Virus record (IMG/VR): IMGVR_UViG_3300043424_000514 | Location: 8,871-72,870 of that record | Strand: one strand, 5' to 3' | Source of the DNA: a virus | Length of the DNA stretch: 64,000 nucleotides | In this document: piece by piece, positions 2,740 to 60,846 of the stretch | Layout of the letters: every line of letters begins with the position of its first letter | How positions within the stretch are numbered: the first letter of the stretch is position 1 | Program-made: the position numbers and the translations under genes | The notes under the pieces: generated by a model | Told to the model about the DNA's origin: nothing | The model's input: the letters and a program-made list of their open reading frames with translations, nothing else | Databases searched by the model: none

Positions 2740-3273
2740 ATGGCGGAGATTATCGAAATTATTGGCTCGGGATTGACTGGCCCCCAGGGGCCCCGCGGGT
2801 TGCCTGGGTTGAACGGAGCCCCTGGAGCCGCTGGGGCGCAAGGTCAGATTGGCCCCGTCGGCCCCGTCGGCCCTGTCGGCCCTCAGGGTTTGCAAGGCGA
2901 CAAGGGCGACCGCGGGCTGCAAGGTCCTAAAGGCGATAGCATTGTCGGTCCCCAGGGCGAGCGCGGGTTAAAGGGCGACAAAGGCGACCGCGGCGTGGAA
3001 GGTCCTATGGGCCCCGTCGGCCCCGTCGGCCCGTCTGGCGGACCAGGCCCCGCTGGGGCGATGGGCCCCCGTGGTTTTCAAGGTTTGCGCGGCGACCCAG
3101 GCCCCCAGGGCATCGAAGGCCCCCGCGGATTGCAGGGCGTGCAGGGCAATAAAGGCGATACCGGCGCAGTCGGGCCCGCAGGTCCCCGCGGTTATACCGG
3201 CCCGCAAGGCCCCCAGGGCGAGGTTAGCAAAGGGTCAGTTATGGCTTTTAGCATCGCTCTTGGAGGCGTGTGA
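2740..3273 (+). CDS. collagen-like fibre protein
   Basis: long Gly-X-Y runs; C-terminal MAFSIALG. Confidence 0.8.
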   Translation: MAEIIEIIGSGLTGPQGPRGLPGLNGAPGAAGAQGQIGPVGPVGPVGPQGLQGDKGDRGLQGPKGDSIVGPQGERGLKGDKGDRGVEGPMGPVGPVGPSGGPGPAGAMGPRGFQGLRGDPGPQGIEGPRGLQGVQGNKGDTGAVGPAGPRGYTGPQGPQGEVSKGSVMAFSIALGGV

Positions 3274-4037
3274 AACAGCAATACACCGGCCCTTACACCT
3301 TCGACCTCGCCACGCGCACGATTACGCTGGCGGGTATTGAGGTTCCCCAGGAGCGATTGGCACTGATCGTTAATTCGACGGTCGGGTTTATTTACCACAA
3401 CCTCGAACACGAACCGACGGCGCAGGTCACGATCTCTGGCGGCGACACGACGATTGTTTTTCCGCAATACAAGGACTGCGAGACGCATCGCGATTCCGAC
3501 GCGTTGTCGATTTTTTATGACGATGGCGTCGATCTTGGACAGTTGATTAAGGACGAGTCGGACGAGACGCAGGCGTTGTTGCAGGCCGAGTTTGACGAGA
3601 CGCAGACTTTAGTTTCTGCGTTCAAGGACGAGTTCAAGGACGAGATTGACCACACCCAATCGGTTTTAGAGACGCGGCTGGAGGCCATCGACATTACTCT
3701 TGCAGACTTTCAAGCCGAGGCTTTGGCCGAGTCCAATGCTACGCAGAATTTTTTGAGCGATACTCTGCGTCCTGTTTTGGATGGTTTTAAGACCGAAGCG
3801 AAAAGCGAGTCGGATGCGACGCAGACGCTTTTGAACCTCAAGCTCTCGGGGCTGATTAACGGGTTTTTGGGGCTGGACGCCCTCGCCAAGTATTCTGCGG
3901 AAAATGGGGTCGAGATTGATTTCACCCCCGGGGGATACGGCCCGTCGCAGATTGTGTTTTCGCAAGGCGGCACCCCTATTAAAACGATCAATCTCACTTA
4001 TGACGCGAGGGGGGCTTTGGTTTTAGTTTCCGCTTGA
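3270..4037 (+). CDS. virion fibre-associated protein, paralog A
   Basis: 255 aa; helical repeats ESDETQ/ESDATQ; clear paralog of next ORF. Confidence 0.7.
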   Translation: MKQQYTGPYTFDLATRTITLAGIEVPQERLALIVNSTVGFIYHNLEHEPTAQVTISGGDTTIVFPQYKDCETHRDSDALSIFYDDGVDLGQLIKDESDETQALLQAEFDETQTLVSAFKDEFKDEIDHTQSVLETRLEAIDITLADFQAEALAESNATQNFLSDTLRPVLDGFKTEAKSESDATQTLLNLKLSGLINGFLGLDALAKYSAENGVEIDFTPGGYGPSQIVFSQGGTPIKTINLTYDARGALVLVSA

Positions 4038-4072
4038 TTTTTCGCTTGTTTGATGTAATAACCACATAACCC
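4034..4072 (+). promoter_or_regulatory. putative promoter TTGATT-N16-TAATAACCACATAACC
   Basis: TAATAACCACATAACC is identical to the copy at 7958. Confidence 0.5.
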
Positions 4073-4840
4073 GTGAAGCAACAATACAAAGGCCCTACAC
4101 TTTTCGATGTCGCCACGCGCACGATCACGATGCTGGGCATCGAGGTGCCGCCGGAGCGGGTGTTGCTGGTGGTTAATTCCACGGTTGGTTTCGTTTATCA
4201 CAATTTTGCGATTGAGCCGAATGGGGATATTTCGATCTCCGGCGGGAATACGGTCATTGTTTTTCCGCCGTATAAGGATTGTGACACACACCGGAATACC
4301 GACGCACTTTCGATTTTTTACGACGACGGGGTCGATCTCGGGAAGCTCATTAAGGACGAGTCGGACGAGACTCAGACGCTCGTTCAAAACGAATTTAACG
4401 AGACACAAACGCTGCTGACCGCTTTCAAAGAGGAGGTCAAAGCAGAGTTCGACGAGACTCAAGCCATCATCGAGCCGCGTCTGGAGTCGATCGACACGGT
4501 TCTTACGGCATTCAAGGCCGAAGCCAAGACGGAGTCCGATGCCACCCAAGTAATCCTTGAAAATCTTTACACGAAGGTTTCGGATTTTAAGACAGAGGCA
4601 AAGAGCGAGTCGGACGACACGCAGAGCATTTTAACGACAAAGCTCCCCGATCCGGTGAACGGGCGCATCCCTGTCGAAACGGTGGGGGCTTTTGACCCGA
4701 CCAACGGGGTGTCGATCGCGATGGATTATGGTGCTTACGGCCCCACCCAAGCGAGGTTTTCCCGCAGTGGATCGGTGGTTAAGACCGTGAATTTGATTTA
4801 CGACCTCAACGGAAACCTGACTTCCGTGATCCCAGGATGA
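4073..4840 (+). CDS. virion fibre-associated protein, paralog B
   Basis: 255 aa; shares MKQQY, VNSTVGF, YKDC.THR..DALSIFYDDGVDLG.LIKDESDETQ with the previous ORF. Confidence 0.7.
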   Translation: MKQQYKGPTLFDVATRTITMLGIEVPPERVLLVVNSTVGFVYHNFAIEPNGDISISGGNTVIVFPPYKDCDTHRNTDALSIFYDDGVDLGKLIKDESDETQTLVQNEFNETQTLLTAFKEEVKAEFDETQAIIEPRLESIDTVLTAFKAEAKTESDATQVILENLYTKVSDFKTEAKSESDDTQSILTTKLPDPVNGRIPVETVGAFDPTNGVSIAMDYGAYGPTQARFSRSGSVVKTVNLIYDLNGNLTSVIPG

Positions 4841-6531
4841 GATTTTTATTCAACCCTATCACCTCGCAGTTTAATGCGGCTCCTCCTAGGGAGATCGTTT
4901 ACTCTGACACGGCCCCTGCGTTTCCTGTTGAGGGCACTCGCTGGGTCAATACGCTGGAGATTCGCGAGTATGTATTTACCTTCGATGCCAGCGGCACGGG
5001 GTATTGGGTGGAAGTGGGCGTCGGATCGACCGGCCCCCAGGGGGAGCAGGGAATCCAAGGCATCCAGGGAATCCAAGGCATCCAGGGAATCCAAGGCGAA
5101 CAAGGCCCTGCTGCCACGGTAGCTGTTGGCACCGTCACGACTGGTGAGCCTGGAACGAGTGTTTCGGTCTCGAATGCAGGCACAAGCGGAGCCGCGGTTT
5201 TAGATTTTACAATCCCTAGGGGCGCAGTCGGGCAAACCGGCGCAGTCGGCCCCCAGGGGCCACAGGGCATACAGGGGCCGAAAGGCGACGACGGCGCAAG
5301 CGTCGTGCTCAAAGGCGCAGTGAATTTTTATTCTGATCTTTCTGCAATCACTAACAAGACCCAAGGCGATCTGTATGTCGTCCAAAGCGACGGCAACGGG
5401 TATGTGTGGAGTGGATCGGGCTGGGTAAATGTCGGGCAAATCCGCGGACCGAAAGGCGACACCGGAGCGCAAGGCCCCGCAGGCCCCGCGCCAGCGGGAA
5501 CCGGTGCGGTGGTTGTGAGTAACGGTGTTGTGGGAACGCCCGTCGGTTACGGCACCACCAATGTCGCCAGCACACTCGTTCAGCGTGACGCCAGTGGAAA
5601 TTTTTCGGCAGGCACGATCACAGCGAATATCACCGGCAATGTCACGGGGAGCGTGACTGGCGGCGTATCCGGCAACGCAGGCACCGCGACCAAACTCGCC
5701 ACGGCCCGCACGATCAATGTCTCCGGCGATGTCACGGGGACGGCGCAGAGTTTCGACGGCTCGGCGGACATTTCGATCCCAACGGCGATTACGGCGGGTT
5801 CGATTGTCGATGCTGACATCAATACCGCAGCGAACATTTCCGACACAAAGCTCGCGACGATTTCAACGGCGAATAAGGTAAGCAACTCCGCCACCACGGC
5901 GACAAGCGCGAACACCGCTTTTGCAATCGTGGCGCGGGATGCAAACGGCAATTTTTCTGCAAACCAAATCACCGCGAATCTCACGGGCAATGTTACCGGC
6001 AACGCTACGAATGTTTCTGGAACGGTAGCAATTCTTAACGGCGGCACGGGGGCGAGCACGGCGGCAGGTGCGTTGGTTAATCTCGGAGCAGCGGCAAGTT
6101 CCCACGCGCATGGGAACATTACCAATGCAGGAGCGATCGGAACGACTGCGAGCTTACCGATTATTACTGGCGCGAGCGGCGTCCTCCAAGCAGGGGCTTT
6201 TGGAACGACTGCGGGGAGTTTCTGCCAAGGTAATGACCCCCGCCTTCAAACCCCGTGGGTTTCAAAGACCACTTCCTACACCGCAGTCGCAGGCGACCGG
6301 ATCAGCGCCAACACCACGGCGGCAGCGTTTACGATCACCCTCCCAGCCTCCCCCGCTGCGTTCACTGAAATTGTTTTTGCTGACCATTACAACCAGTGGG
6401 CAACTCGCAATCTCACGATTGCCCGTAATGGGCAAAACATCGAGGGGCTCGCTGAAGACCTTGTGTGCAATGTCGCCGGATTACAAATCACCTTACGATA
6501 TGAAGGAACAACCTGGAGAGTCTATACATGA
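4837..6531 (+). CDS. tail fibre protein with collagen segments
   Basis: GIQ repeats, RDASGNFSA/ATKLATARTI fibre motifs, C-terminal FTITLPASP...NLTIARNG domain. Confidence 0.8.
   Translation: MRFLFNPITSQFNAAPPREIVYSDTAPAFPVEGTRWVNTLEIREYVFTFDASGTGYWVEVGVGSTGPQGEQGIQGIQGIQGIQGIQGEQGPAATVAVGTVTTGEPGTSVSVSNAGTSGAAVLDFTIPRGAVGQTGAVGPQGPQGIQGPKGDDGASVVLKGAVNFYSDLSAITNKTQGDLYVVQSDGNGYVWSGSGWVNVGQIRGPKGDTGAQGPAGPAPAGTGAVVVSNGVVGTPVGYGTTNVASTLVQRDASGNFSAGTITANITGNVTGSVTGGVSGNAGTATKLATARTINVSGDVTGTAQSFDGSADISIPTAITAGSIVDADINTAANISDTKLATISTANKVSNSATTATSANTAFAIVARDANGNFSANQITANLTGNVTGNATNVSGTVAILNGGTGASTAAGALVNLGAAASSHAHGNITNAGAIGTTASLPIITGASGVLQAGAFGTTAGSFCQGNDPRLQTPWVSKTTSYTAVAGDRISANTTAAAFTITLPASPAAFTEIVFADHYNQWATRNLTIARNGQNIEGLAEDLVCNVAGLQITLRYEGTTWRVYT
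5047..5097 (+). repeat. in-frame 18-nt tandem repeat (CAGGGAATCCAAGGCATC) encoding collagen GIQ
   Basis: about three exact copies. Confidence 0.85.
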
Positions 6532-7988: not shown

Positions 7989-9023
7989 ATGGCTAATCCC
8001 AACCTCAAAGTAGTCCGCCGCCGCCTTACTGGCGCAGCCGGAGCCCCTTCCGACATGGAAGCGGGACAAATCGCAATAAATTCCGTTGACGAAAAAGTCT
8101 ATATCCACAACGGCACTTCCGCAATCCCCGTTGCGGGTAAGGGCGAGTTCGTGGACAAAGGCTCCGAGCAGAGCGTCACCGGCAAAAAGAATTTCACCTC
8201 GGCGACCGTCTCCACCGCGCCAAGTGCTACGACCGATGTCGTTCGTAAAACCGATCTCGACACCGAAGTCACTGCACTTCAAGGTGCCATCACGACTGAG
8301 GCGACGACGAGAGCCTCGGCAGACACCGCTCTTGGTCTCCGCATCGACGCCCTAGGGAGCGCGCTGAACTATGTTGGCACTGTCAACGGTGGTGCAAACT
8401 CTGGCGCGGCGACTAACCTTGCCTCGCTGACCGAGAAGGACGCGGGCGATTACTACAAAGTAGGCACGGCAGGACACTTCGTTCTCGCTCCCGCAGCTTC
8501 GTTCTTCGCCAATAGCGGAGACGGCCTCGTCTTCAACCTCACTGGTGGAATCGACAAGATCGACAATACCAACAGCACTGTTGCAGGCACGGCGAACTAC
8601 ATTTCCGTTTCTGGTAGCACCGACACCGGCTACACGGTGGACATCGACAGCGCCTTCAAGACCCGTCTCACAACTGCGGAGACCACTCTTGCAGGGCTCG
8701 GCACCATGTCCACGCAGAATGCCAACAGCGTTGCCATCACCGGCGGCACGGTTAATGGCACGGCGATCGGCGGCACGACTGCTGCGGCTGGCGCGTTCAC
8801 CACGCTCACAGCTTCCTCGACCGCGACCCTGAACACCCTGGCCAGTTCCGGCGCTACCCTCACGGGCGGCACGATCAATGGCATGGCGATCGGCGGCACG
8901 ACTGCTGCGGCTGGCGCGTTCACCACGGTTTCGGCTTCTGGCAATGCGACCTTCAATGGCAACATTGTGGGTGACGGCTCGACCGAAATCACGGACTGCA
9001 TCATTGACGCTGGAACATTCTGA
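7989..9023 (+). CDS. tail fibre protein
   Basis: N-terminal RR...P....GQIAIN..D.K.Y fibre motif, [16 protein letters not shown] and [13 protein letters not shown] repeats, C-terminal DAGTF. Confidence 0.75.
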
Positions 9024-11394: not shown

Positions 11395-11564
11395 AAATAG
11401 TAAACATCGTCATCGAACGACTCAGTGAAAATTCCACCTGGCGCGGGCTCATCCTCGTCGTCACCGCCCTAGGGCTCCGTTTGGAGCCAGAGCTTCAGAA
11501 TCAGATCGTTGCGGCGGGCCTCTCACTCGTCGGCCTCATCAACATCGTTCGCAAGGGTAAGTGA
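11391..11564 (+). CDS. holin
   Basis: 57 aa, RLSENSTWRGL motif, two hydrophobic segments, basic C-terminus, directly before endolysin. Confidence 0.7.
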   Translation: MKIVNIVIERLSENSTWRGLILVVTALGLRLEPELQNQIVAAGLSLVGLINIVRKGK

Positions 11565-12145
11565 CCCAAGAGCAAATCCAGCGGATGCAACGGCGCATTG
11601 GCGTCGTGCCGGACGGGTTCTGGGGCCCCAAGTCCCAGGCCCGTTGCCGCGAGCATCTGCGCTCGCTGATGCCGAGCCCGAACCCATGGCCGCACTCCAC
11701 GCAAGCGGCGCTCCGTGAGTTCTATGGCGAGCCAGGGGATGAATCGAACCTCGTCACGATCGAGTTTCCCTTCCCCATGTATTACGATGGGAAGCTCGTC
11801 AAAAAATCCCGCTGCCATCTGAAGGTCGCGCCTTCCCTGACGCGGATTCTCCAAGCGATCGGGAGCCTGCACGGCAAAGATCGCGAGGTCATGGAAGAGG
11901 CCGAGGACTACGGCGGTATCTTCAACTTTCGACAAAAACGCGGCGGAAACTCGTTTTCTGTCCATGCTTGGGGGGCGGCAATCGACCTCGACGCCGACGA
12001 CAACACTTTTCGCGACACCTGGCCGCTGAAGGCCGATATGCCCCTGGAGATCATGGAGGCTTTCGCCCGCGAAGGCTGGCAGAGCGCCGGAGCCTTCTGG
12101 GGCTACGACGCCATGCACTTCGAGGCGACCCGCCCTAGGGCTTGA
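11561..12145 (+). CDS. endolysin, M15-family peptidase with N-terminal peptidoglycan-binding motif
   Basis: DGFWGPKS; SVHAWGAAIDL and DAMHFE zinc-ligand motifs. Confidence 0.88.
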   Translation: MTQEQIQRMQRRIGVVPDGFWGPKSQARCREHLRSLMPSPNPWPHSTQAALREFYGEPGDESNLVTIEFPFPMYYDGKLVKKSRCHLKVAPSLTRILQAIGSLHGKDREVMEEAEDYGGIFNFRQKRGGNSFSVHAWGAAIDLDADDNTFRDTWPLKADMPLEIMEAFAREGWQSAGAFWGYDAMHFEATRPRA

Positions 12146-13922: not shown

Positions 13923-14690
13923 ATGCTGCTTGTCATCCCGTTTGCCGAAAAGTCTCTGCCTCTGTATCAGCACCTTTTTTCCCTAGGGGGCGTGGCGATG
14001 CACGATGTTTTGCTGGTCGGCGGGAACCGCGATGTCGCCGAGATCGAGAAGGCGCTCAACATTTTGAAGGGAGCTTTTGCCAACGCGGATGTTTTCACAG
14101 GCGACCATGTTTACACCTCGCGGAACAAACTCTTTCACGACACGGCGCACTACCTCGACCTCGTGGGCTGCACCGATCCGTGGTATTGGTTCGACGAGAC
14201 CTGCTGCCCGCTGCGCCCTTCATGGCTGACGGAGATCGCAAAGGAGTATTTCGCCGCGAAGATGCCCTACCTCGGAGCCACCGAGCGTAGCGTGGAGCGC
14301 AACCCTGCCACGGGGAAGCCCTATGAGGAGCCGCCGCGCCTGATCGCTTCGTCGATCTACCCGCCCGATCTTTACCTGCGGAGCACGCTGATCCGCCGCT
14401 TGGGCTACGGTCCGAAGGAGACGCCGTGGAATGTGACGATGCGGTTCGAGATTCGCAAGGAAGCCGCGACTTCCAAGCTCATCCAAAACCAAGCGGGCAC
14501 CTCGAATTATCGGGGTGGTCCTGATGGGAAGTATTTTTTCAAAGAAGCCCCTGGGGTGAACGCCGAGCCGATTGCCCCGCACACGGCAGTCGTCGCCGGA
14601 GTCTCCGATGGGTCTGTGCTCGAAGTCCTCAACCCCAAGCCCAAACCGGCCAAGAAAAAATCCGATGAATCTGAACCACTCTCCGCTTGA
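13923..14690 (+). CDS. hypothetical protein, possibly glycosyltransferase-like
   Basis: PWYWFDETCCPLRPSWL resembles a degenerate GT-A DxD region; weak. Confidence 0.4.
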   Translation: MLLVIPFAEKSLPLYQHLFSLGGVAMHDVLLVGGNRDVAEIEKALNILKGAFANADVFTGDHVYTSRNKLFHDTAHYLDLVGCTDPWYWFDETCCPLRPSWLTEIAKEYFAAKMPYLGATERSVERNPATGKPYEEPPRLIASSIYPPDLYLRSTLIRRLGYGPKETPWNVTMRFEIRKEAATSKLIQNQAGTSNYRGGPDGKYFFKEAPGVNAEPIAPHTAVVAGVSDGSVLEVLNPKPKPAKKKSDESEPLSA

Positions 14691-19694: not shown

Positions 19695-21026
19695 ATGGCA
19701 GCACTACAAAACATCGAACAACTTTTCGTGGAGTGGGGCGGTTTGATCCGCAACAATGTCGCGAAGAACATCGTAACCTCCGACTTCTACCTCAAATATC
19801 TTCCTAAAGATAAGTGGGTGGATGGTCAGGGCAACCAAGTCAGCTATCCTATTTTCGAGCGTTCGCTTTCCAGCGCCGCGGTCTCGACTCCAGGTGGCGT
19901 GATTTTTGAGAACTGGACCTCCTCGGGCGGCGATGGCGACAACGCCACCAAGAGCGGCACTTACACCGCTTCCCCGAACAACTCCAACCTCGTTGGAGCC
20001 AATGGCGGTTCTCTCTCCCGCAGCGGTATGCTCGGCGGCGGAAGCCACATCGTCGGTCAAAAGATCGACAGCTTCGGCGTGACCGTTCGCACCATGTCGC
20101 TCAAAAAGGCGGCTCTCAACAGCCCCGACATCAACCTCGATGACCTCCAATTCGCTTGGCAGGTCGAGGACCAGGTCAAGAATGTGATCCGTGTCCTTTC
20201 CGAGAACACCAAGTATGTCTGGACCAACACCTACCAGGACGAGTATGTCAACGCCTGCGGACAAAAATCCGTGGCGGTTGCCAACTTCGACCCCACCACG
20301 ACCGACTTCGCGGCCACTCCGGCGACCTCGAAGCTCACCTGGGGCATCCTCGAAGCGATCTACGAGCAACTCGGCTACAACGGCGGGTCGATCAACCCGT
20401 TCGCCCGCGTGGACGAGATGACTCCGATCTATGCCGCTGTCGGCGAGCGTTACACCTTCTCGGACCTCAAGCGCCAAGACGCCAATGTCCGCGACGACTT
20501 CCGCTATGCCTACATGGGCAACGGTGACAGCAACCCGATGCTTTCGGCCCCAGGGCTGAACGCCATCTACCGTGGCTTCAAGTTTTTCACGGTTGAGTTG
20601 CCTCCTCGCTACACCTTCGACGCTGTGGCTGGTGACTGGGTCCGCGTGTTCCCCTACGAGCCCATCGCGACTTCGCGTGGTATGCGTTGGGAGATCAGCG
20701 CCGCCTACAAGGCCGCTCCTTACACCGACACCGTGATCTACCACCAGGATGTGATGAAAGTCCTCACTCCTTCGCCCCGCACCAGCAAGGGCGGCATGAC
20801 CTACAACCCTGCTTATAGCTGGGCTGGCGAGTTCGTGTGGAGGAACATCCCTGACCGCGAGAGCAACATCGACGGCAACACCGGCTTCTTCCGTGCGCTC
20901 TACGCCTACGGCTCGAAAGTCGAGCGCCCCGAGTTGGGCTTTGTGGTCCGCCACCTCCGTTGCGTGGATCGTGCGAACGATCTCACCGACTGCGACGGCG
21001 ACCATGTCTGCCCTCCGGCTCCTTGA
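19695..21026 (+). CDS. major capsid protein
   Basis: 443 aa, follows scaffold, strongly biased codon use, flanked by terminator/promoter and a downstream hairpin. Confidence 0.7.
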   Translation: MAALQNIEQLFVEWGGLIRNNVAKNIVTSDFYLKYLPKDKWVDGQGNQVSYPIFERSLSSAAVSTPGGVIFENWTSSGGDGDNATKSGTYTASPNNSNLVGANGGSLSRSGMLGGGSHIVGQKIDSFGVTVRTMSLKKAALNSPDINLDDLQFAWQVEDQVKNVIRVLSENTKYVWTNTYQDEYVNACGQKSVAVANFDPTTTDFAATPATSKLTWGILEAIYEQLGYNGGSINPFARVDEMTPIYAAVGERYTFSDLKRQDANVRDDFRYAYMGNGDSNPMLSAPGLNAIYRGFKFFTVELPPRYTFDAVAGDWVRVFPYEPIATSRGMRWEISAAYKAAPYTDTVIYHQDVMKVLTPSPRTSKGGMTYNPAYSWAGEFVWRNIPDRESNIDGNTGFFRALYAYGSKVERPELGFVVRHLRCVDRANDLTDCDGDHVCPPAP

Positions 21027-21033
21027 TTAGGTA

Positions 21034-21088
21034 AGCCTCAAACCCCGCCTCCGGTTCCCTAGGGGATCGGGGGCGGTCTTGAGGTTTG
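21034..21088 (+). terminator. long imperfect hairpin after capsid gene, centred on CCCTAGGG
   Basis: AAGCCTCAA..CCGCCTCCGGTTCCC-TA-GGGGATCGGGGGCGG..TTGAGGTTT. Confidence 0.6.
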
Positions 21089-21116
21089 ACCAACACATCA
21101 AACCCGACCAACCCAC

Positions 21117-23585: not shown

Positions 23586-24178
23586 TGGCAAACTCGACAA
23601 TCAACGGACTCTCGGAAGTCACAACCCTCGCAACGAACGATCAGTTCGTGGTCTGGGCGACTTCGGCAAACGGAACGCGAAAAGTCAAAGGGGAGAACCT
23701 CGACAAGCTGATCTTCCGGCAACGGTCGGCGGCGACCGATCCTTCGGGAAAGATCGTCCCCATTGTTTCTTATGCGGGCGGAGTTCCGGTGGTGGAGGGA
23801 ATCACTTTTGAAAATTTCACTGCCCCGCTAGGCATCGCCGACAACGCTGTGACATCCGCGAAGCTCGCGCCTTCGGTTCGCGTGAACGCTTGGGCGAAAA
23901 AAACCGCCAACTACACGGCTATCGCGTGCGACCGGATTGCGGCGGATACGACAGCGGGGGCTTTCACGATCACGCTCCCCGCCAGCCCTGCCGCGTTGGA
24001 TTGGGTGCTGATCTCCGACATCGCGCAAAAATGGGGCACCAACAATTTAACGGTAGCTCGAAACAACAGCCTCATCAACGGGCTGGCGGAGAACCTCGTT
24101 TGTGACACCACAGGGGAAATACTGCTGCGCTACGAAGGAACTACTCAAGGCTGGAGGGTTTTTGCTTATGGCTACTAG
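23585..24178 (+). CDS. tail fibre attachment protein
   Basis: ADNAVTSAKLA repeat; C-terminal domain homologous to that of 4837-6531. Confidence 0.65.
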   Translation: MANSTINGLSEVTTLATNDQFVVWATSANGTRKVKGENLDKLIFRQRSAATDPSGKIVPIVSYAGGVPVVEGITFENFTAPLGIADNAVTSAKLAPSVRVNAWAKKTANYTAIACDRIAADTTAGAFTITLPASPAALDWVLISDIAQKWGTNNLTVARNNSLINGLAENLVCDTTGEILLRYEGTTQGWRVFAYGY

Positions 24179-26920: not shown

Positions 26921-28240
26921 ATGGGCTTAATCGCAGGAGCACTCGTTGGGGGCGCGGTGATCGCAGCCGGAGGAGCCGTCGCCGCAGGAGCCATGCAGGC
27001 CGACGCTACGAACAGGGCCAATGCCTCATCCGCCGCGGCCACCAAGAAATACATGAAGCTGGCCTCGGCGGAAGCCGAGCGGGGCTACGGCGACATGATG
27101 GCGGCGATCGGGAAGCTGGGGGGATCGCAGTCGGGGCTTTCAAACACTTACATCGACCGCACGGGAAAGCTCGTGGATCAATACGGGCAGCAAGTTAAAG
27201 AAGCCCTGGGGAATTTTCCTGATTACTTCACCGGATGGAGTGGGGTCGTTGACAAAGCCGATCAAAATGTCACGGACTTTGAGACCCGCTCCCGAAATGT
27301 CATTAAGGAATCGGCGGATCAGACTTACGATTACAACCTCGGAAGGTTCGACGATTTCACCAATTTCGCGACCCGACTGAGCGAGGAGAACCAGAAAATC
27401 CGGTTGAACCTTGCCAGAGCGGCGACCCCGCTCTTTGACGAGACCCGCTCGCAGATGGCGCTCAACGACCTCCAGCTAACCCAGGGAATCGTGCCCGCCT
27501 CGGTGCAAGCCGAGATCGAGCGTGCAGCCGCCCAACGCGCCCTAGGGGCGGGAACCGGCGCGGGGAGCCAACTTAAAAACAACCTGTCGATGCGTGACTT
27601 GGGGCTTTCCTCCATGGCGGGGATTCAGCAGGGGCAGCAGAATTTCCAAAACCGCCAGCTTCAAGATTACAACACGCTCGTCGCTGGAACGCAGGTCGGG
27701 GTCGAAAATGTTTACAACTGGATGGGGCTCAATACCAACAAGGTCATTGATGTCAATAACGAGAACAGTTGGAAGCTCTTTGAGGCCCAGAAAGTGCCGC
27801 TCGACTACAAGATGGTCGGGCTCAACACCGCGCTGGACAAGAGGTTCGACCTCGCCACGAACCAAGCGAGCTTCCTCCACACGACTTACTCCAATGTCTA
27901 TGGGCAAGAGAGCGAGACGGCTCGCGCCATGGCCGCGATGGAAGCGGCAGCAGCAGAGGCCCGCACGAATGCCAAACTCGGCATCGCGGGTCAAGGGCTC
28001 TCCAATGCTTACGCCAGCGCCAACCGCTCCATGGCTTCGGGGCTCGCCAACGCGCAACTCGTGAGCAACGCCTCGTCGCAGATCGGCGGGTCTTTAATGG
28101 GATTTGGAATGGCGGGCATGACTGGAGGGGGGTCAGGAGGGTTTTCGTCTTACGGACAGATGACTCAACACACCGCCCCCGGCACAACGGGAAGCTATGT
28201 CCAGGGATCAGGGTGGGTTCCTAGGGCGACAGCCGCTTAA
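26921..28240 (+). CDS. ejection / DNA pilot protein
   Basis: Gly/Ala hydrophobic N-terminus, Ala/Gln-rich helices, position after tail genes. Confidence 0.65.
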   Translation: MGLIAGALVGGAVIAAGGAVAAGAMQADATNRANASSAAATKKYMKLASAEAERGYGDMMAAIGKLGGSQSGLSNTYIDRTGKLVDQYGQQVKEALGNFPDYFTGWSGVVDKADQNVTDFETRSRNVIKESADQTYDYNLGRFDDFTNFATRLSEENQKIRLNLARAATPLFDETRSQMALNDLQLTQGIVPASVQAEIERAAAQRALGAGTGAGSQLKNNLSMRDLGLSSMAGIQQGQQNFQNRQLQDYNTLVAGTQVGVENVYNWMGLNTNKVIDVNNENSWKLFEAQKVPLDYKMVGLNTALDKRFDLATNQASFLHTTYSNVYGQESETARAMAAMEAAAAEARTNAKLGIAGQGLSNAYASANRSMASGLANAQLVSNASSQIGGSLMGFGMAGMTGGGSGGFSSYGQMTQHTAPGTTGSYVQGSGWVPRATAA

Positions 28241-42187: not shown

Positions 42188-42389
42188 CCTATGGCCCCCT
42201 GGGGGCTGGCAATTTGAAGAACTTTGCACCGGCTGTAAGTTCCGCGGCAACTCGCTGGCCGACCTAGCCGAGAAGGTGCGCCTCCACAGGGAATCCAACG
42301 CCCTAGGGCGGGAGGACCTGGCGCTGGAGGACATCCAAGAACAGATCATCCTGCGAGCGCCGGAAGAATTCGACGGCTGGGAGGAGTAG
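42165..42389 (+). CDS. small hypothetical protein
   Basis: 74-aa ORF (PPGGWQF...) overlapping end of the giant gene. Confidence 0.55.
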   Translation: MRRLKDPNLWPPGGWQFEELCTGCKFRGNSLADLAEKVRLHRESNALGREDLALEDIQEQIILRAPEEFDGWEE

Positions 42390-45777: not shown

Positions 45778-47391
45778 TTATGCTTTTACTGAACGCAACA
45801 ACCTCACAAGCGCATCGGCCAGCCCCCACAGGCTTTCGCGGCTGATGTAATAATCGAAGTGCTCCTTCAAGTTCTTCGTCCGGTCGATGGAAGAACAGCA
45901 CAGGCCGAGGGTTTGCAGCCCCCGCTCGCGCAGCGCAGCGCGGTCGATCGGGTTATCGGTGATCTCGCCGTCGGTGTAGATGATGGCGAGCCTGTCCTTG
46001 GACACCTCGTCGAAGCAGTTCTTCGAGGTCTTGCGGTGGGCGGGGCTGGGGCTCAAGGCCAGACCGAACCCCTCGGCTGAACTCCAACCGCGGGCCAACT
46101 GCGCTTGCGCGTAGCTCTTGATGGGCAACTCCGTCTTGTAGTTCACGCCGCCCTCGGAGCAGAAGTAGGCCGTGCATTTGATCTTCTTCTTGCCTGCGAG
46201 GATCGACAGCGCCATGAGCAAGACGCGGCCTGCACGATCGGTCGGGAGCGAGGTCGTCTTCTCCCGATCAACGAAGCAGTTGTAATACGCCATCGAGCCC
46301 GAGCAGTCGATGAGCAAAGACAAATGCGGGACGCCGTTGTTGCCGATGACCTTGCCGATGTAGGGCAGGTCGTAGCATTTGCGGAGGATCGCCCGCAGGT
46401 TGAGCTTGGAGGTCGGTCGGCTGGTCGCCCCCTTGGTGGTGCCCACCCCCTTGAAGGCGGTGGCAAGCATTCGGGCGAGGCGGACGGCGAGGTAGTGCTC
46501 CCGCTTCTGGTCGTCTCCACTGACGCCTGACAGCGACTCTTCCTCGGAGAGGGAGGACAGGGTTCCGTGGGCCTTCATCTCCTCCCCTTTGCTGGTGCCT
46601 GTCGTCTCGCCTTCCTCGTCGCCTGGCTTCTTGGGGACATGGAGCACGGCTTCACCGCAAGCAGTCATAGCGTCCTTGAGGTCGCCGGTGCCGAGCCCGC
46701 CCGCTTTCTCGATCGAGTCGTCGCTGGTGCGAGGGAACTCTTTGAGCCAGTCGATTAGCACGGGGATCAAATTCTCGGTGCTAGAAGTCCTGCGAATGCG
46801 GTTGAAGTATTTCAAAACCGTATCGAAGAACGGTAGCACTCGGAAGGTCGCCTGAAACTTTCGGGACAACTTGCGGGAGAATCCCGAGCAGTCGTTCTTC
46901 ATCCAGTAGAGCAGCGCCGAGGGTGTGACTTTCGAGATGTCCTCGGGATACTTCTCCCAAGTCATCCACTTGAAGGCCCGCCTGCGGAGGCGGGACCAGA
47001 TGGTCTCGATGCGGATGTCCTCGAAGAGGTTCATCAAACGCCAAGGGATGTTGTGTTTCTTGAGCGCATCGTTGAGTTCCTTGAGGTTCTTGGTGGTGAA
47101 GCGGGAGTGCGCCGCCTCGTGCTCATAGACCTCGGTGAACAGCTTGGGCACCGACCGGCGAACGCCGCTCCCTAGGGAGGGGGTGGCGATCGTATCGTAG
47201 GCCAGAGGCGAGATCATAATCTCATGCTTCTTGGTGTCGTGGTTGTAGGTCCAGCACCCCGTCTTGCAGGGGTGGGACGGCGGGAGAACTCCGAGCGAGT
47301 AAGCCTCGGTCAGGGTTCCCTTGGAGCGGAGCTTGATGTGAGCCGCTTCGACGAGCGAGCGGATGTGTGTGGTCAGTTTGATCTTGGACAT
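45778..47391 (-). CDS. metallopeptidase-like + vWA domain protein (CobT/NorD-like partner of MoxR ATPase)
   Basis: HEAAH...NLFEDIRIE; MIDAS LLIDCSGSM; IYTDG. Confidence 0.85.
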   Translation of the reverse strand: MSKIKLTTHIRSLVEAAHIKLRSKGTLTEAYSLGVLPPSHPCKTGCWTYNHDTKKHEIMISPLAYDTIATPSLGSGVRRSVPKLFTEVYEHEAAHSRFTTKNLKELNDALKKHNIPWRLMNLFEDIRIETIWSRLRRRAFKWMTWEKYPEDISKVTPSALLYWMKNDCSGFSRKLSRKFQATFRVLPFFDTVLKYFNRIRRTSSTENLIPVLIDWLKEFPRTSDDSIEKAGGLGTGDLKDAMTACGEAVLHVPKKPGDEEGETTGTSKGEEMKAHGTLSSLSEEESLSGVSGDDQKREHYLAVRLARMLATAFKGVGTTKGATSRPTSKLNLRAILRKCYDLPYIGKVIGNNGVPHLSLLIDCSGSMAYYNCFVDREKTTSLPTDRAGRVLLMALSILAGKKKIKCTAYFCSEGGVNYKTELPIKSYAQAQLARGWSSAEGFGLALSPSPAHRKTSKNCFDEVSKDRLAIIYTDGEITDNPIDRAALRERGLQTLGLCCSSIDRTKNLKEHFDYYISRESLWGLADALVRLLRSVKA

Positions 47392-50635: not shown

Positions 50636-51043
50636 TTACTCGTAACGAGGGGCTGATTCTTTGCTGTTGTCTGATTGCCCTGGGGAGGATTCGACTGTGA
50701 CCCACAGGTCTCCGCCATCGCTCCACCCTAGGGGGATATACCCCTCGTCATGGTAGGCGGTGTCGATGTCGGGCAGGTTAGCCATGGCAGCATGGCGGGA
50801 CGGGGCCTCGGCGCGGTTGGCCTTGGCGACAAGGGCCTTGGCTACTTCGAGCCACTTCTCGGCGACGCTGCGGGTGGCAAAGGGGACGGTGCCGTGAAGG
50901 GCGTTCACGGTATACCACCACCCGCCTTCTTCTGGCCCGCCGTAGCAGCGTTCTCTCCGATACACGGAGACCCAAGCGGGGCTGGCTTGCTCGAATTCGG
51001 TGTGGGCTTCGATCTTTTCTACGAGTTGTTCGATGAGGTTCAT
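50636..51043 (-). CDS. hypothetical early protein
   Basis: R.YGGPEEGGWWY motif; shared leader. Confidence 0.7.
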   Translation of the reverse strand: MNLIEQLVEKIEAHTEFEQASPAWVSVYRRERCYGGPEEGGWWYTVNALHGTVPFATRSVAEKWLEVAKALVAKANRAEAPSRHAAMANLPDIDTAYHDEGYIPLGWSDGGDLWVTVESSPGQSDNSKESAPRYE

Positions 51044-51069: not shown

Positions 51070-51258
51070 TTACTTGGATGCTTTTGCGATGCGATAAAGG
51101 AGTATCTCGCGCAAGGTCGATCCCCTAGGGAGGTCTCGCACGAACTCAAACGCACGGCTTAACTCCTCGACGCTGGGTAAAGGGGCGTCGTGCGACAGGT
51201 GGTTGGCGACATTGATGTGACCAGCCTCAATGAGCAATGGTATGTGTGGGTGTTTCAT
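51070..51258 (-). CDS. hypothetical early protein
   Basis: start placed after shared leader. Confidence 0.55.
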   Translation of the reverse strand: MKHPHIPLLIEAGHINVANHLSHDAPLPSVEELSRAFEFVRDLPRGSTLREILLYRIAKASK

Positions 51259-51281
51259 TTGTTTCCTTTCTTGGTTGGTTA

Positions 51282-51578
51282 TTACTCTTCGTTTTCTGCG
51301 GCTTCCTCTGCGGTGCGCCAGCATTCTTCGTAGTAGGTGTTGTTGTCGTGCCGCTCCTTGGTAGCCAGATGACCGAGGTGGTTACAGAAGTGGTGCGGCG
51401 GGCCGATAATGATCCACTCGGAGCCGTCGTCTCCTTCGGATGTTGTGACTGACCATATCTGGTCGTCGTCAAAGCCTGCGTCTTTGGCTTCCTTCCAACT
51501 TTGGAAGTAGTCTCCGTCTGGTCGCCGGATTTCTTCATAGGGGAAGTCGCAATCAAAGCAGATGTTCATTGGTTTCAT
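51282..51578 (-). CDS. acidic hypothetical early protein
   Basis: start placed after shared leader. Confidence 0.6.
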   Translation of the reverse strand: MKPMNICFDCDFPYEEIRRPDGDYFQSWKEAKDAGFDDDQIWSVTTSEGDDGSEWIIIGPPHHFCNHLGHLATKERHDNNTYYEECWRTAEEAAENEE

Positions 51579-51871: not shown

Positions 51872-52129
51872 TTAGTTTGCTGCGTCTCTAACTCGATCCC
51901 AGTTCGTGCCGTAGTTGGCGTCGAAGTAGTGATCTAGGTTGTCTGCGGTTGCGATATGGGCAGGATCGTTCCAGTCAACGGGGTCGGGTGAGGCGTCCCC
52001 ATCCTCATCGACGGAGAAATCCTCTGGAGTCCAAGCCTCCAGATAGACCATCGGATACTTCGCTCGGAAGACTTTGAGGTCTTCGTAGAAGGTGTCGGCG
52101 GGGTTGTTGGGTTTGGTTTTCTTGCTCAT
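51872..52129 (-). CDS. acidic hypothetical early protein
   Basis: shared leader. Confidence 0.6.
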   Translation of the reverse strand: MSKKTKPNNPADTFYEDLKVFRAKYPMVYLEAWTPEDFSVDEDGDASPDPVDWNDPAHIATADNLDHYFDANYGTNWDRVRDAAN

Positions 52130-52244
52130 TGGTTTGTTCTTTCTATTGTTGGTTGTTGATGTGGATGTTCTGGAGGGAACAAAGGGTTTCTGTTATTCGA
52201 TAACAGGCTCCCTAGGGAACGAGGTTACTCTCCCTAGGGAGGGG

Positions 52245-53426
52245 TTAAGACACCGCTGCCGCTGATCCGTTCAATCCTTTTTTGTTTAGGAATGCGACGA
52301 GTTCTCGGTAGCGGTTGCGCCGTGAGGGGTGGTTGACGAAATCGCAGAAGCACTCGGCGGTGATGTCACGCAGGCTGACGACACGGACAAACTCGACGAG
52401 GGCCGCAACGAACTGGACATTCTTGAGGAAGCTGGACTTCTTGAGTGTCGCACGGAAGGCACGAACCTCGATGCGGTCGCCCTCACGAATGGCGGCGGCG
52501 GCATAGCGTCCGGTGTAGGGGTCGCGAGCCCAAGGAACTACGACATCATAGTTTGCGAACCCATTGGACCCACGGCCTGTGACCTTCTCGCAGAACTTCC
52601 GATTGACAGGGAAGAACCGGAGGAACTTGACCTGTTGCAAGCGGGTCAGCGAACTGCGGCGGATGCTGATGTGGATGCCGTAGCCTGTGCCTGCATCCCA
52701 TCCGATTGCCTTGCCCCGTATGTCGTCGAGGAACCCAGACCAATTCCCTTTGCGGTAGGTGCGGAGGCCGAGAGGCGGGGCGACAATCTCCACGCCAAGC
52801 TGCTCATGCAACGAGCCGTCCCTCTCGGGGATGAATCCGTGATCCTTTGCGGCAAAGCAAATGTCGTTTAGGGATTCTTTGTTGCTGGCGCATATCTCCA
52901 ACTCGACACCGAACAAGTCGGCGAGGGGGTCGTGTTTCTTCCACAGGTTTCGAGTGTATTGATCCCCGTGGTATTGCCCTCGACCTGATGATTCCTCATC
53001 CTCATCCTCCGGCTCTGGCTCCCAATGGTAGTCGCCATCGCTGTCCCAGTGGTAGAGGTCGTCTTGGTGTTCTTCATAGCAGACGGTGTAGCCGTCCACC
53101 TCGACGCTACTAAAATTATTATCGCTGAAATAATTATCGGAGTGTTCGCAGAAGAAGGCGTTGTTGCCAGTGCAACAACCGCACCATTGCTCCTCGTGAC
53201 CACGACGGTTGACAATGACGGTCCGGCTGTCATCGGAAGGGTGGCAATCACCGCAATGGCCGCAGTCGAAGGTGTCCTCCGTGTAGTGAATGTCGCCATC
53301 GTAGGTGGTGCAATAGTCGCTCCCGTCGATGATGCCTTGAGCCACGAGCCAGTCGCAGAGTTCCTCGGTTCTCTTGCTGGGGCGGGTGTTCTGCCAAACT
53401 TTGCGGATGTAGTCTTTGAGTTTCAT
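52245..53426 (-). CDS. putative amidoligase (COOH-NH2 ligase) with N-terminal Cys-rich zinc ribbons
   Basis: FGVELEI, ERDGSL, GVEIV..P, GIHISI, IEVRAFR motifs. Confidence 0.85.
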   Translation of the reverse strand: MKLKDYIRKVWQNTRPSKRTEELCDWLVAQGIIDGSDYCTTYDGDIHYTEDTFDCGHCGDCHPSDDSRTVIVNRRGHEEQWCGCCTGNNAFFCEHSDNYFSDNNFSSVEVDGYTVCYEEHQDDLYHWDSDGDYHWEPEPEDEDEESSGRGQYHGDQYTRNLWKKHDPLADLFGVELEICASNKESLNDICFAAKDHGFIPERDGSLHEQLGVEIVAPPLGLRTYRKGNWSGFLDDIRGKAIGWDAGTGYGIHISIRRSSLTRLQQVKFLRFFPVNRKFCEKVTGRGSNGFANYDVVVPWARDPYTGRYAAAAIREGDRIEVRAFRATLKKSSFLKNVQFVAALVEFVRVVSLRDITAECFCDFVNHPSRRNRYRELVAFLNKKGLNGSAAAVS

Positions 53427-56622: not shown

Positions 56623-56775
56623 AGGTTGCTTTACCTTTAGGCGCTTTGATTCCCTAGGGAGGTGACAGAGTTACGCCATGTAACTCCGATCCCTATGGGA
56701 ACTTGCAGTTGCGCCCGACCGCAAGCTGCCGCTCCCTGTTAGCGGATAACAGGAAGCGGGGTGCTTGCGTTCAGG

Positions 56776-57786: not shown

Positions 57787-58399
57787 TGTGTCTTGTCTTT
57801 CTGAAATGCGTTTAAGGTTTTCTTAAACGGCTTGATGAAGGATTGAAGCGGCTGTGGCGGTGTCGCCGATTGGCGACCGCTTCCGTTCATCCCTTCACTG
57901 ATTCATTGCGCCGTTATCGTTTTTCCCTAGTGAACGGAGGATGCTTGGAATCGCAAACCGATTGCATTTCGCCGAAACATCCAAGGCAACTTTGCTATTT
58001 TCGCCATTTTCGCCTGAAACAGGCATGGACACACTAGGACAAAGCGGGACAAGGAATCCATGAACCATTGATTATCAACGACTTACAAAGAATCAGGCAC
58101 AGGTCAAAAGCCCGCACCCACCACCCACCCCACCACGGTGCCTCCCTATCAGGCGCTGTCCATATAATACTATCTTATATACCGGCTTACAAAATTTTTT
58201 CGTTATTTTAAGCGTTATTAACTTTTTAGGTAATTTAGCAAGTCCCTAGGGAAGATAAAAAGCTCAAGCGCAAGCGCAAGCCGCTCGAAAGCTAGAAAAC
58301 TTAGCCGGAGGCTCTACGATTGGAGGATTTTACTGCGAAGACCGCGAAGCGCGGGCAAAAGTCTCGGTTTTTTCGACTGAAAAGGGGCTCCGATAGGGC

Positions 58400-59630: not shown

Positions 59631-59803
59631 TTCGTGAACCAGTGCTTAAAGTGCCCAAAGTCGCGGGGTTCTGTGACAAAGGTGTTCTTCTCGCACACAT
59701 CGCACTTGCCGAAGTGGAAAGTGGACACAGATTTGACCTTGCTAGAGCCGTGTTTTCGTCCGCATGGAACGCAAGCCCAAGATGGGTAGGGCTTTTCTTT
59801 CAT
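59627..59803 (-). CDS. small zinc-finger protein (58 aa, below ORF-track cutoff)
   Basis: hand-translated MKEKPYPSWACVPCG...GKCDVC...TEPRDFGH...; ATGA-coupled on both sides. Confidence 0.65.
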   Translation of the reverse strand: MKEKPYPSWACVPCGRKHGSSKVKSVSTFHFGKCDVCEKNTFVTEPRDFGHFKHWFTK

Positions 59804-60036
59804 TTAGAGGTGGACATTTTGACAGACATTAGCGCCTCACGGAGTTCGGTGACGACGCCGAACTTGTCGTTCTCGAAGTCGATTTCAGCCAGTGCGATAG
59901 CCCTTTCTGCGATGTAGATTAGTTCTCTAATCTGCTCCCGCGCCTCGTCGCGCTCGCGTTCCAACTGCTGTGCGTGGAGCCGTGGGTTGCAACTGGCGCT
60001 ATCCCAACAAGCATCCGTCTCTGGTGTATCGGTCAT
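59800..60036 (-). CDS. hypothetical coiled-coil protein
   Basis: MTDTPETDA...LERERDEARE. Confidence 0.6.
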   Translation of the reverse strand: MTDTPETDACWDSASCNPRLHAQQLERERDEAREQIRELIYIAERAIALAEIDFENDKFGVVTELREALMSVKMSTSK

Positions 60037-60404
60037 TTAATGTCCTCCCATTTTCCTAATGTTTTAAGAAATGCCTCGGCGCGTTGGCGGGCAGTTGCGC
60101 GAATTAGCTTATTGGCTATTGACCATGTAATTGTGTGGTCGTCGTATTGATCTCCTTGCGGAATAATTAGATGGTAAAGGTTCACGGCAAAATAAAAGTC
60201 ATTATCGAGCGTTTCCCCCGCTTCGTGCATCGCGTTGAGGTCGTTGCAGTAGTCGGGGATTTGAGTTTCCAGCGTTCGATTGCCATGCTCTGTCCGCTTC
60301 CAGCCATGCGGCCTTCTTCCAAATTCTACAGGAGCGTGAGAAGACTGAATTTCTTTCCACCCACACGCCTCAGCGATGGCAATGTTGATTTGTTCGTCAC
60401 TCAT
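60033..60404 (-). CDS. phage ABA-sandwich-like domain protein
   Basis: IN.AIAE..GW...PDYCNDLNAMHEA...ATARQRAEAFL. Confidence 0.6.
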   Translation of the reverse strand: MSDEQINIAIAEACGWKEIQSSHAPVEFGRRPHGWKRTEHGNRTLETQIPDYCNDLNAMHEAGETLDNDFYFAVNLYHLIIPQGDQYDDHTITWSIANKLIRATARQRAEAFLKTLGKWEDIK

Positions 60405-60685
60405 TTCGCGCCCTCCTTGAGTTTCTCCAAAATAGACCCTCTCAAGCTCTCAAGGCACTTGATCGCCATGTCGATTCCCGTATTAGTCCCACTCCTAGCT
60501 CCATCCATCCAGATCGGTTTCTCGTCGCGTCGAAGCAACTCGATCAATCTTTTGTTCTCTTCTCGCAGTGCGTCGCGCTCGCGTTCAAAACTTTCGCTCG
60601 TTGTGGCAAGAACAACGACGAGCTTTCTTCCTTCCGTATCGAAAGCAATAAACGATTTGGCGTCCGTCTCTGGTGTATCGCTCAT
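60401..60685 (-). CDS. hypothetical coiled-coil protein
   Basis: MSDTPETDA...FERERDALRE; paralogous N-terminus to 59800-60036. Confidence 0.6.
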   Translation of the reverse strand: MSDTPETDAKSFIAFDTEGRKLVVVLATTSESFERERDALREENKRLIELLRRDEKPIWMDGARSGTNTGIDMAIKCLESLRGSILEKLKEGAK

Positions 60686-60846
60686 TTCATTCTCCCATAA
60701 AGCCCGCAGAGGGGGCAGGTCGTGAACTTCCTGTTCTTGCGTATGCTATTTGCTTCGATGATGTTCATAACACACGCAGTCAGAATCGTGATCCCTAGGG
60801 CGATGAAGCAAATCGTCTCTCCGCTGATGAACTTCTCCCGCTTCAT
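60682..60846 (-). CDS. small membrane protein (54 aa)
   Basis: hand-translated MKREKFISGETICFIALGITILTACVM...CPLCG; fills gap with ATGA overlaps. Confidence 0.5.
   Translation of the reverse strand: MKREKFISGETICFIALGITILTACVMNIIEANSIRKNRKFTTCPLCGLYGRMK

Follow-up and report, generated by a model that had tools for sequence, protein, structure and literature searches.

The 64,000-nucleotide window analysed here, bases 8871-72870 of a single 72,870-bp viral contig (IMG/VR record IMGVR_UViG_3300043424_000514), has the gene content of a tailed phage and carries 25 exact copies of the palindromic octamer CCCTAGGG. Recognisable genes encode collagen-like and tail-fibre-like proteins, an M15 peptidase, a family-A DNA polymerase, a DUF5906 primase-helicase-like protein, a helicase fused to a DUF2800 nuclease, a PD-(D/E)XK/Hjc-like endonuclease and a 3,988-residue open reading frame (ORF); most ORFs have no annotation in PHROGs or Pfam, and no tRNA genes were found. 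The GC content is 55.7%, rather than the ~57% guessed in the initial annotation that had singled out the octamer.

All 25 positions listed in that annotation are exact copies, compared with a mean of 0.39 (maximum 3) in 100 dinucleotide-preserving shuffles. The wider family CCCYRGGG has 61 members in the window (shuffles: mean 5.28, maximum 11), which divide by their central dinucleotide into 25 TA, 22 CA, 13 TG and 1 CG, matching the earlier estimate of about 35 CA/TG forms (CCCCAGGG and CCCTGGGG) and a single CCCCGGGG. In the full 72,870-bp genome CCCTAGGG is the commonest octamer (n = 28, with an order-2 Markov expectation of 0.62 per strand), giving an observed-to-expected ratio (O/E) of ~45 and a density of 0.38 per kb. 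Among its 12 distinct one-letter variants only the central transitions CCCCAGGG and CCCTGGGG are clearly enriched (36 vs 2.85 expected, genome). The unit is the octamer, as had been proposed: 25 of the 34 CCTAGG hexamers in the window are flanked by the outer C and G, and in the genome CCTAGG is the sole strongly over-represented hexamer palindrome (38 vs 9.2 expected), 28 of the 38 being the octamer. The sites and associated features are as follows, with the octamers given without strand.

5214-5221: CCCTAGGG, coding I-P-R-G (AGG) in plus-strand gene 4837-6531; kept in 2 of 2 aligned relatives
8350-8357: CCCTAGGG, coding A-L-G-S (CTA) in plus-strand gene 7989-9023; identical in 7 of 7 aligned loci
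11467-11474: CCCTAGGG, intergenic in the gene model; TA/TG swaps among relatives
12133-12140: CCCTAGGG, last codons of the M15-peptidase ORF 11561-12145, 10 nt ahead of the ATG at 12150; TA/CA swap in the closest relative
13981-13988: CCCTAGGG, intergenic or uncertain; TA/TG swaps
21027-21095, plus strand: hairpin after gene 19695-21026 (-43 kcal/mol, z = -6.4), with CCCTAGGG at 21057-21064 as its top and CUAG as the loop
25057-25064: CCCTAGGG, coding A-L-G-L in plus-strand gene 24102-25796; TA swaps with TG or CA in relatives
27540-27547: CCCTAGGG, coding A-L-G-A in plus-strand gene 26921-28240
30345-30352: CCCTAGGG, coding S-L-G-E in the giant ORF 30221-42187
31488-31495: CCCTAGGG, coding P-L-G-N in the giant ORF
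32088-32095: CCCTAGGG, coding T-L-G-R in the giant ORF
37917-37924: CCCTAGGG, coding A-L-G-V in the giant ORF
39859-39866: CCCTAGGG, coding L-P-R-E in the giant ORF
40180-40187: CCCTAGGG, coding D-P-R-D in the giant ORF
41682-41689: CCCTAGGG, coding S-L-G-R in the giant ORF
41805-41812: CCCTAGGG, coding S-L-G-F in the giant ORF
42301-42308: CCCTAGGG, coding A-L-G-R in the small plus-strand ORF 42165-42389
47170-47177: CCCTAGGG, coding S-L-G-S in minus-strand gene 45778-47391
50726-50733: CCCTAGGG, coding P-L-G-W in minus-strand gene 50636-51043
51123-51130: CCCTAGGG, coding L-P-R-G in minus-strand ORF 51070-51324
52210-52239: two CCCTAGGG copies (52210 and 52232), 22 bp apart, in the spacer between minus-strand genes 52245-53426 and 51872-52129
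56652-56659: CCCTAGGG, intergenic in the strict gene model
58244-58251: CCCTAGGG, intergenic
60793-60800: CCCTAGGG, intergenic
2782, 2950, 3103, 3211, 5035, 5251, 7721, 9097, 17642, 18040, 20548, 25346, 31829, 33010, 35032, 36726, 36972, 37157, 38292, 38331, 39156 and 59244: the 22 copies of CCCCAGGG, a transition variant
7713, 14549, 15305, 15374, 16452, 27204, 30550, 33478, 33813, 39411, 42197, 45058 and 50678: the 13 copies of CCCTGGGG, a transition variant
3926: the single CG form, CCCCGGGG
38327-38359, plus strand: 33-bp exact repeat, its second copy at 39152-39184, with CCCCAGGG inside each copy, the bounding repeat in which the word had been noted

The excess of CCCTAGGG is real and independent of coding, codon usage and collagen. 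Coding sites in the genome read as [APST]-Leu-Gly through CTA (13 sites) or as Pro-Arg through AGG (6 sites) and lie on both arms, in agreement with the initial annotation; the two frames used are those that a word with a central TAG permits, and the codons concerned make up 127 of 1,686 Leu (CTA) and 115 of 1,268 Arg (AGG) codons in the same gene table. The other 9 sites are intergenic, so that ~9/28 fall in the 15% of the genome that is non-coding under the strict gene model. When synonymous codons were permuted within each of 70 genes (500 rounds, intergenic sites left untouched) the mean number of CCCTAGGG copies was 10.15 (maximum 14) against 28 in the genome, and since 9 of this mean are the unshuffled intergenic sites, about one coding copy is expected where 19 are observed. 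The same shuffles gave a mean of 23.2 (maximum 33) for the 65 CCCYRGGG sites of the genome and 11.3 for its 36 CA/TG variants. Collagen-like sequence covers 5 of the 35 CA/TG sites under a strict filter and, with 3211, 7721 and 7713 also reading GPQG, 8 of the 35, the number originally attributed to it. The earlier proposal of a DNA-level signal thus withstood the codon-preserving shuffles suggested as its test, with neither codon usage nor collagen explaining the word.

Several simple origins were rejected. Use of the word's TAG as a real stop was dropped, as the frames ending there are mostly off-frame or antisense inside real genes, and deamination decay of CCCCGGGG fails because only ~2 such sites are expected vs 65 family sites. 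A role in RNA, with CCCUAGGG in transcripts serving as a hairpin top or terminator or as a stop-plus-ribosome-site junction, would fit the strong terminator-like hairpin capped by 21057, where the apex position claimed earlier holds, and CCCTAGGGAGG is visible at 47170, 51123, 52232 and 56652. Such a role is nevertheless very unlikely: most copies are single, genic and outside larger hairpins, the frames ending at the TAG are as described, and Shine-Dalgarno sequences are little used by the phage (19 of 58 genes) and not at all by the host. No regular spacing of the sites was found; their distribution is random-like (coefficients of variation 0.84 and 1.03), and the suggested signal about every 1 kb does not stand as a periodicity.

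The phage genome is otherwise subject to a near-total purge of palindromes, so that CCCTAGGG stands out where such words are under strong counter-selection. ACGT and GTAC have 0 copies each, vs ~151 and ~136 in codon-preserving shuffles, and of the 64 palindromic hexamers 41 are absent and 12 more occur at 1-5 copies; those retained include CGATCG (64), CCGCGG (43), TCGCGA (35), AAATTT (25), CCATGG (19), TTGCAA (16), GGGCCC (11) and GAATTC (10). Close relatives have the purge in common, while relatives of ~50% GC retain ACGT and GTAC. A genome so depleted that keeps CCTAGG could in principle hold CCCTAGGG as the one safe (methylated or unrestricted) palindrome left over from restriction, an idea to which we give almost no credence. 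Tolerance alone would not raise a word 45-fold, the 10 CCTAGG copies outside the octamer agree with expectation (9.2 for all CCTAGG), a provirus and Hymenobacter polaris described below show the excess without a general purge, and the relatives that keep ACGT and GTAC are rich in the word all the same.

These relatives form an uncultured clade. Among 50,697 phage records the giant ORF found no match by megablast, nor did the portal-like and capsid-like proteins by tblastn, and a leucine-rich repeat protein gave repeat matches only; IMG/VR holds uncultured relatives in which the portal-like and capsid-like proteins range from 100% down to 41% identity. In most of 30 clade loci CCCTAGGG is the top or near-top octamer, including ~50%-GC relatives in which ACGT and GTAC are not avoided. 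The whole records of five relatives contain 12, 14, 10, 10 and 11 copies in 50.6, 45.1, 41.6, 35.8 and 35.0 kb (reversed control 0), and a further relative (G720) has 15 in 18.1 kb, so that density across the clade is 0.24-0.83 per kb. The most distant loci (L028 and L029, 41% capsid identity) have 0 in 20 kb. As a separate observation, these two loci carry another word, GTTTCCAA / CTTGGAAA / GGTTTCCA, at 22-25 copies in 20 kb.

Comparison within the clade narrows the word and shows how its positions change. The CA/TG excess is limited to the closest group (~56% GC), whereas the ~50%-GC relatives carry CCCTAGGG alone, and at orthologous positions (11467, 12133, 13981, 15305, 15374, 17642, 18040 and 25057) TA interchanges with TG or CA, whichever of the two is synonymous in the reading frame there. 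The degenerate CCCYRGGG first put forward as the unit is therefore replaced by CCCTAGGG with transition variants, and we read the swaps, from the alignments, as probable neutral or GC-ward drift of one unit rather than as a broader recognition sequence. Relatives ~73% identical share only the site at 21057, whose octamer is identical in 14 of 14 aligned loci with these relatives included, which indicates that positions turn over while density is kept. Each site is a lone octamer that arose by substitution within aligned coding sequence, and on this ground repetitive extragenic palindrome (REP) or hairpin repeat elements, which are extragenic, tens of bases long and inserted as units, were rejected.

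The refuting outcome named in the initial annotation, that sites be no more conserved than other synonymous positions, was observed in part. At core sites the outer six bases survive in 39 of 47 comparisons, where octamers in general predict 22.4; the family's central two bases fall below background (83 of 153 kept vs 109.4), and four-fold degenerate outer positions show no conservation beyond that of other four-fold C/G sites (80 of 101 vs 77.0), all of these being counts of pairwise comparisons that are not phylogenetically independent. Whole core sites thus exceed average octamers and the four-fold positions do not exceed their background; per-site constraint is accordingly weak, which also fits a mutational origin.

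The same word recurs in a virus with no detectable kinship to this phage. Record G718 (44,751 bp, 61% GC, classed as a provirus, with a terminase, an S49 protease and a Toprim primase) has 16 dispersed CCCTAGGG copies vs 0.64 expected (25-fold). The phage proteins of at least 80 residues gave no tblastn hit in it, and all-against-all blastp (885 and 546 ORFs) no credible match; named Hymenobacter genomes encode proteins with 87%, 83% and 67% identity to the G718 terminase. That the 25- to 45-fold excess recurs in two unrelated viruses without a protein in common speaks against a reader encoded by the phage.

Binding, nicking or organising sites for a protein of the clade's own (a regulator, a nucleoid-type protein or a nickase) are consequently improbable, and the organiser, nickase or HNH reader envisaged in the initial annotation is not supported. 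The word is held across the clade and absent from its most distant members, the site at 21057 is invariant, two copies stand 22 bp apart in an early spacer, ~9/28 of the sites fall in the non-coding 15% of the genome, and a mismatch with the Hymenobacter signature, described below, leaves room for an independent origin. Against this, the unrelated prophage and bacterial chromosomes reach the same saturation with no shared protein, two thirds of the sites are genic and turn over, and synonymous positions are no more conserved than background. Pfam recognised no methyltransferase domain in the 50 phage ORFs scanned and no DNA-binding domain, a weak point given that most small ORFs match no Pfam family at all.

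Cluster A mycobacteriophages have stoperators, asymmetric 13-bp sites that follow the direction of transcription and bind the phage repressor; these likewise place tens of copies of one short word over a phage genome. They differ from CCCTAGGG, which is palindromic, mostly genic and also present in bacteria, and an operator or stoperator array was rejected on the grounds that 19/28 sites are coding, positions turn over and the prophage has the same word without a shared protein.

A close-pair scan of IMG/VR returned at least 118 loci; four relatives of this phage were among the matches listed, most of the others being tight hairpin-type pairs. AT-rich viral contigs L157 and L194 carry tight CCCTAGGG pairs similar to a hairpin repeat of two Bacteroidales metagenome-assembled genomes (MAGs), G1205 and G1206 (loci L140, L106 and L145), in which a fixed CCCTAGGG-N8-CCCTAGGG element, with for example CAATTTTG between the two copies, occurs 11-12 times per genome; these repeats are a different thing from the dispersed single octamers.

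Bacterial chromosomes rich in CCCTAGGG occur in Hymenobacter, where the search of host genomes advocated earlier found the word in a subgroup at a level like that of a highly iterated palindrome (HIP). H. polaris has 3,302 copies in 5.6 Mb (reversed control 0), G723 2,636 in 4.8 Mb (control 1) and H. bucti 943 in 6.2 Mb (control 1), compared with 14 in 3.6 Mb (control 1) and 3 in 3.5 Mb (control 58) for Chitinophagaceae MAGs of Chitinophaga and Flavihumibacter. The H. polaris density is 0.59 per kb, a 30-fold excess (239 vs 7.9 expected in a 400-kb sample); in the same 400 kb the shoulder word GCCTAGGG numbers 186 vs 29.8, and CCTAGG is in general excess (530 vs 123). Richness is patchy within the genus: in a sample of 151 Hymenobacter genomes, five (G721, G723, G896, G722 and G1225) have 162-777 copies of GCCCTAGGGC, the word as a flanked 10-mer, and the remaining 146 have at most 29 each; close CCCTAGGG pairs turn up in 6 of the 201 genomes sampled from the family and 4 of the 301 from the order. 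G723 (locus L134, L294-L299) is a MAG titled Janthinobacterium lividum that was drawn in the Hymenobacter polaris genus sample, and its label looks wrong because it is CCCTAGGG-rich, GATC-free and has a Hymenobacter-type prophage terminase.

Elsewhere no rich genome was encountered in the sets sampled. The maximum among 401 Cyanobacteriota was 346 sites in 4.1 Mb (0.084 per kb), where the counting method is validated by 4,099 copies of the known alternate HIP GGGATCCC in cyanobacterial G282; among 301 Chloroflexota none was rich and a close pair occurred in three genomes only (maximum 2). Other Cytophagales genomes sampled, five hand-picked genomes (0.006-0.078 per kb), single genomes of Ramlibacter, Planctomycetaceae, Verrucomicrobiota and Thermomicrobiales, and G1204 (19 copies vs 6.8 expected) were likewise not rich. 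A close-pair scan of genomes (at least 120 rows) matched H. polaris twice and H. bucti once among the matches listed, and neither collection-wide pair scan can show absence.

Phage, prophage and rich hosts are equal in saturation, the fraction of amino-acid contexts synonymously able to encode the word that do so (obtained throughout by one crude ORF procedure, which over-counts some frames). In [APST]-L-G contexts it is 22% in this phage, 24% in four relatives, 23% in G718, 24% in H. polaris and 26% in G723, so that about a quarter (~22-26%) of eligible contexts are written as CCCTAGGG; the corresponding values for P-R are 21%, 33%, 15%, 26% and 27%. Densities in phages, 0.38 per kb here and 0.83 in G720, compare with 0.59 in the richest host, H. 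polaris.

This equality, together with weak per-site conservation, makes biased repair or gene conversion a serious rival explanation, although we consider it rather unlikely. A cell-side system would correct near-cognate sequences to CCCTAGGG in whatever DNA replicates in the cell, and the word would settle at a mutation-drift equilibrium with no benefit per site, a model of a kind proposed for HIP1 by Elhai (2015; PMC4390886, available text). The common saturation of about a quarter in host, prophage and phage, the four-fold positions, the random-like spacing and the gradual approach to the word seen at orthologous positions, 15305 for example, all agree with it. The components of the model, however, are missing from rich genomes: Vsr (PF03852) was found only in a motif-poor genome and is missing from G721, G723 and G722, the C5 methyltransferase (PF00145) is absent from 4/5 rich Hymenobacter genomes and PF01555 from 2/5. 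One-off neighbours are not clearly depleted in the host either (CTCTAGGG ratio 2.0, CCTTAGGG ratio 1.03), and the phage, with its own family-A polymerase, attains densities at or above the host's. A 5-methylcytosine/Vsr (Dcm/Vsr-type) mechanism is thus not supported in the rich genomes, which argues that at least the CCCTAGGG palindrome is not made as Elhai proposed for HIP1. No strand-skew imprint was found at the phage sites or around 309 host sites.

In its general properties CCCTAGGG resembles HIP1 (GCGATCGC) and the alternate HIPs of cyanobacteria, which are, in the text available of PMC4390886 and PMC5861425, GC-rich palindromic octamers, far over-represented, in genes in several frames as well as in spacers, and of patchy taxonomy. 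With O/E ~45 and 0.38 per kb it qualifies as a HIP-like motif against the cut-off of O/E >16 of Xu, Lawrence and Durand (2018; PMC5861425) and a required frequency of at least a few tenths per kb, and in phage and H. polaris together O/E is ~45 and ~30 and density 0.4-0.6 per kb. Conservation of sites between related genomes beyond background, a further mark of HIPs, is not clearly evident here, the counts being 39/47 vs 22.4 for core sites and 80/101 vs 77.0 for four-fold positions, with the same non-independence of comparisons. The word itself differs, since neither CTAGG nor CCTAGG occurs in the portions of Elhai's text available (PMC4390886), and so do its carriers, which are a phage clade, a prophage and a Hymenobacter subgroup rather than cyanobacteria. 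Elhai's rule, as worded in those portions, of a methyltransferase for the word or its core in every rich genome finds no parallel in the classes searched, no C5 or PF01555 enzyme being common to the rich genomes, which is no exhaustive exclusion. No published description of CCCTAGGG as an iterated word was found in the literature searched, supplementary files excluded (Elhai's Supplemental Table S3 may list further words), in keeping with the initial annotation, which knew of none. The word looks like a new counterpart of cyanobacterial HIP1, common to bacteria and viruses. Separately, GCGATCGC is the top octamer of a 13.9-kb viral contig (L199, 14 sites), indicating that viral contigs can carry cyanobacterial HIP1 at host-like density.

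We favour, by a modest balance of probability, the reading that CCCTAGGG is a host-type HIP common to certain bacteria and the viruses replicating in them, read or made by a DNA process of the cell. Certain bacteria and their viruses would write the word into about a quarter of permissive codon contexts and also into spacers, copies in the phage arising by point substitutions that are largely synonymous and draw on the otherwise rare CTA and AGG codons. Single copies would be weakly conserved and turn over between relatives with density held across the clade, the central TA drifting by transitions to CA or TG in the closest relatives, and the reader or maker would be a cell-side DNA transaction rather than a phage-encoded protein. 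Phage densities that reach or exceed that of the richest host, together with the cost of rare codons, favour selection on phage DNA over a passive imprint.

What a host factor reading the word might do is more tentative. Possibly a host recombination or repair nuclease-helicase recognises CCCTAGGG as RecBCD or AddAB does Chi, in which case phage DNA carrying it at host-like or higher density would be spared or recombined rather than degraded, and a palindromic word would function from either DNA end. Lambdoid phages lacking a recombination module are enriched in the Chi octamer of their host (Zheng et al., 2025; PMC12315714, available text), and are alike in holding a host octamer in excess; no other published case was found in which a phage has been selected to carry the iterated word of its host. 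In a bolder and somewhat less probable version, CCCTAGGG would be the recognition word of an undescribed cell-side system of DNA-end processing or self-recognition, a palindromic two-way equivalent of Chi, patchy and perhaps on mobile DNA, in some Bacteroidota and at least one other lineage, under whose influence about a quarter of permissive sites come to carry the word, in the chromosome and in every phage that resides in or visits the cell.

Several observations weigh against the host-type reading and its Chi-like extension. Known Chi words are non-palindromic and strand-biased (PMC5861425, available text) and have a known reader, RecBCD; CCCTAGGG is its own reverse complement, cannot display the strand-bias hallmark, and occurs in a phage whose own helicase-DUF2800 nuclease and PD-(D/E)XK/Hjc-like endonuclease may free it from dependence on host recombination. 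Over-representation of the Chi type is seen in the Hymenobacter subgroup and its prophage, whose GATC signature this phage does not share. GATC is at expectation in the phage and two relatives (374 vs 396, 70 vs 80 and 106 vs 107) and nearly gone from four Hymenobacter genomes (8 vs 723, 1 vs 190, 2 vs 140 and 2 vs 117; samples L274-L305 of G721, G723, G722 and G896) and from G718 (0 vs 107.5 expected), the GCCTAGGG shoulder is absent from the phage clade (0 in three sets), and the hexamer-palindrome profile of the phage does not correlate with that of Hymenobacter (rho -0.01 to -0.06). These mismatches argue that H. polaris and its close kin are not hosts of this phage, and the sharing of the word with Hymenobacter could be convergent. 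Neither Bacteroidota-type (TAnnTTTG) nor sigma-70 promoter boxes are enriched upstream of phage genes, no rich genome outside Hymenobacter was met among 1,400 of ~200,000 genomes, a sparse sample, and the four-fold positions give the word no excess conservation. The host-type reading predicts that the phage's own host is a CCCTAGGG-rich bacterium tolerating GATC, unlike the Hymenobacter genomes sampled. The loss of GATC is in itself a second extreme word bias in Hymenobacter.

What highly iterated palindromes do has been an open question ever since HIP1 came to light in the 1990s. According to the available text of Xu et al. (2018; PMC5861425), 20 years of study had not shown whether HIP1 has a function. 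CCCTAGGG would provide a second, independent HIP system with better experimental handles, namely a lytic-type phage clade, an unrelated prophage and a few culturable Hymenobacter species. With 5 rich and 146 poor genomes among 151, a presence/absence comparison inside one genus can seek the determinant, and the equal saturation (~22-26%) in virus and cell sets a quantitative constraint for any model. The word may also serve as a practical host-prediction marker for uncultured phages.

Three minor features of the phage complete the picture. In the genome outside the window a 401-residue ORF (L151:8006-9211) has a weak match (E 5e-4, which falls short of the Pfam cut-off) to phage integrase central and SAM-like domains; integrated relatives of the clade were not seen, the 87 portal-like homologues all lying on contigs of at most 76.9 kb. 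The early-region spacer 52189-52244, which holds two CCCTAGGG copies, has a TGTTA-N5-TAACA inverted repeat just upstream and may be a control region. Finally, the polar, non-palindromic octamer TAATAACC has 24 copies in the window vs ~1 expected, for example upstream of the ATG at 13200; 15 of the 24 overlap non-coding DNA at least in part, and 10 precede a gene start on the same strand by no more than 100 nt.

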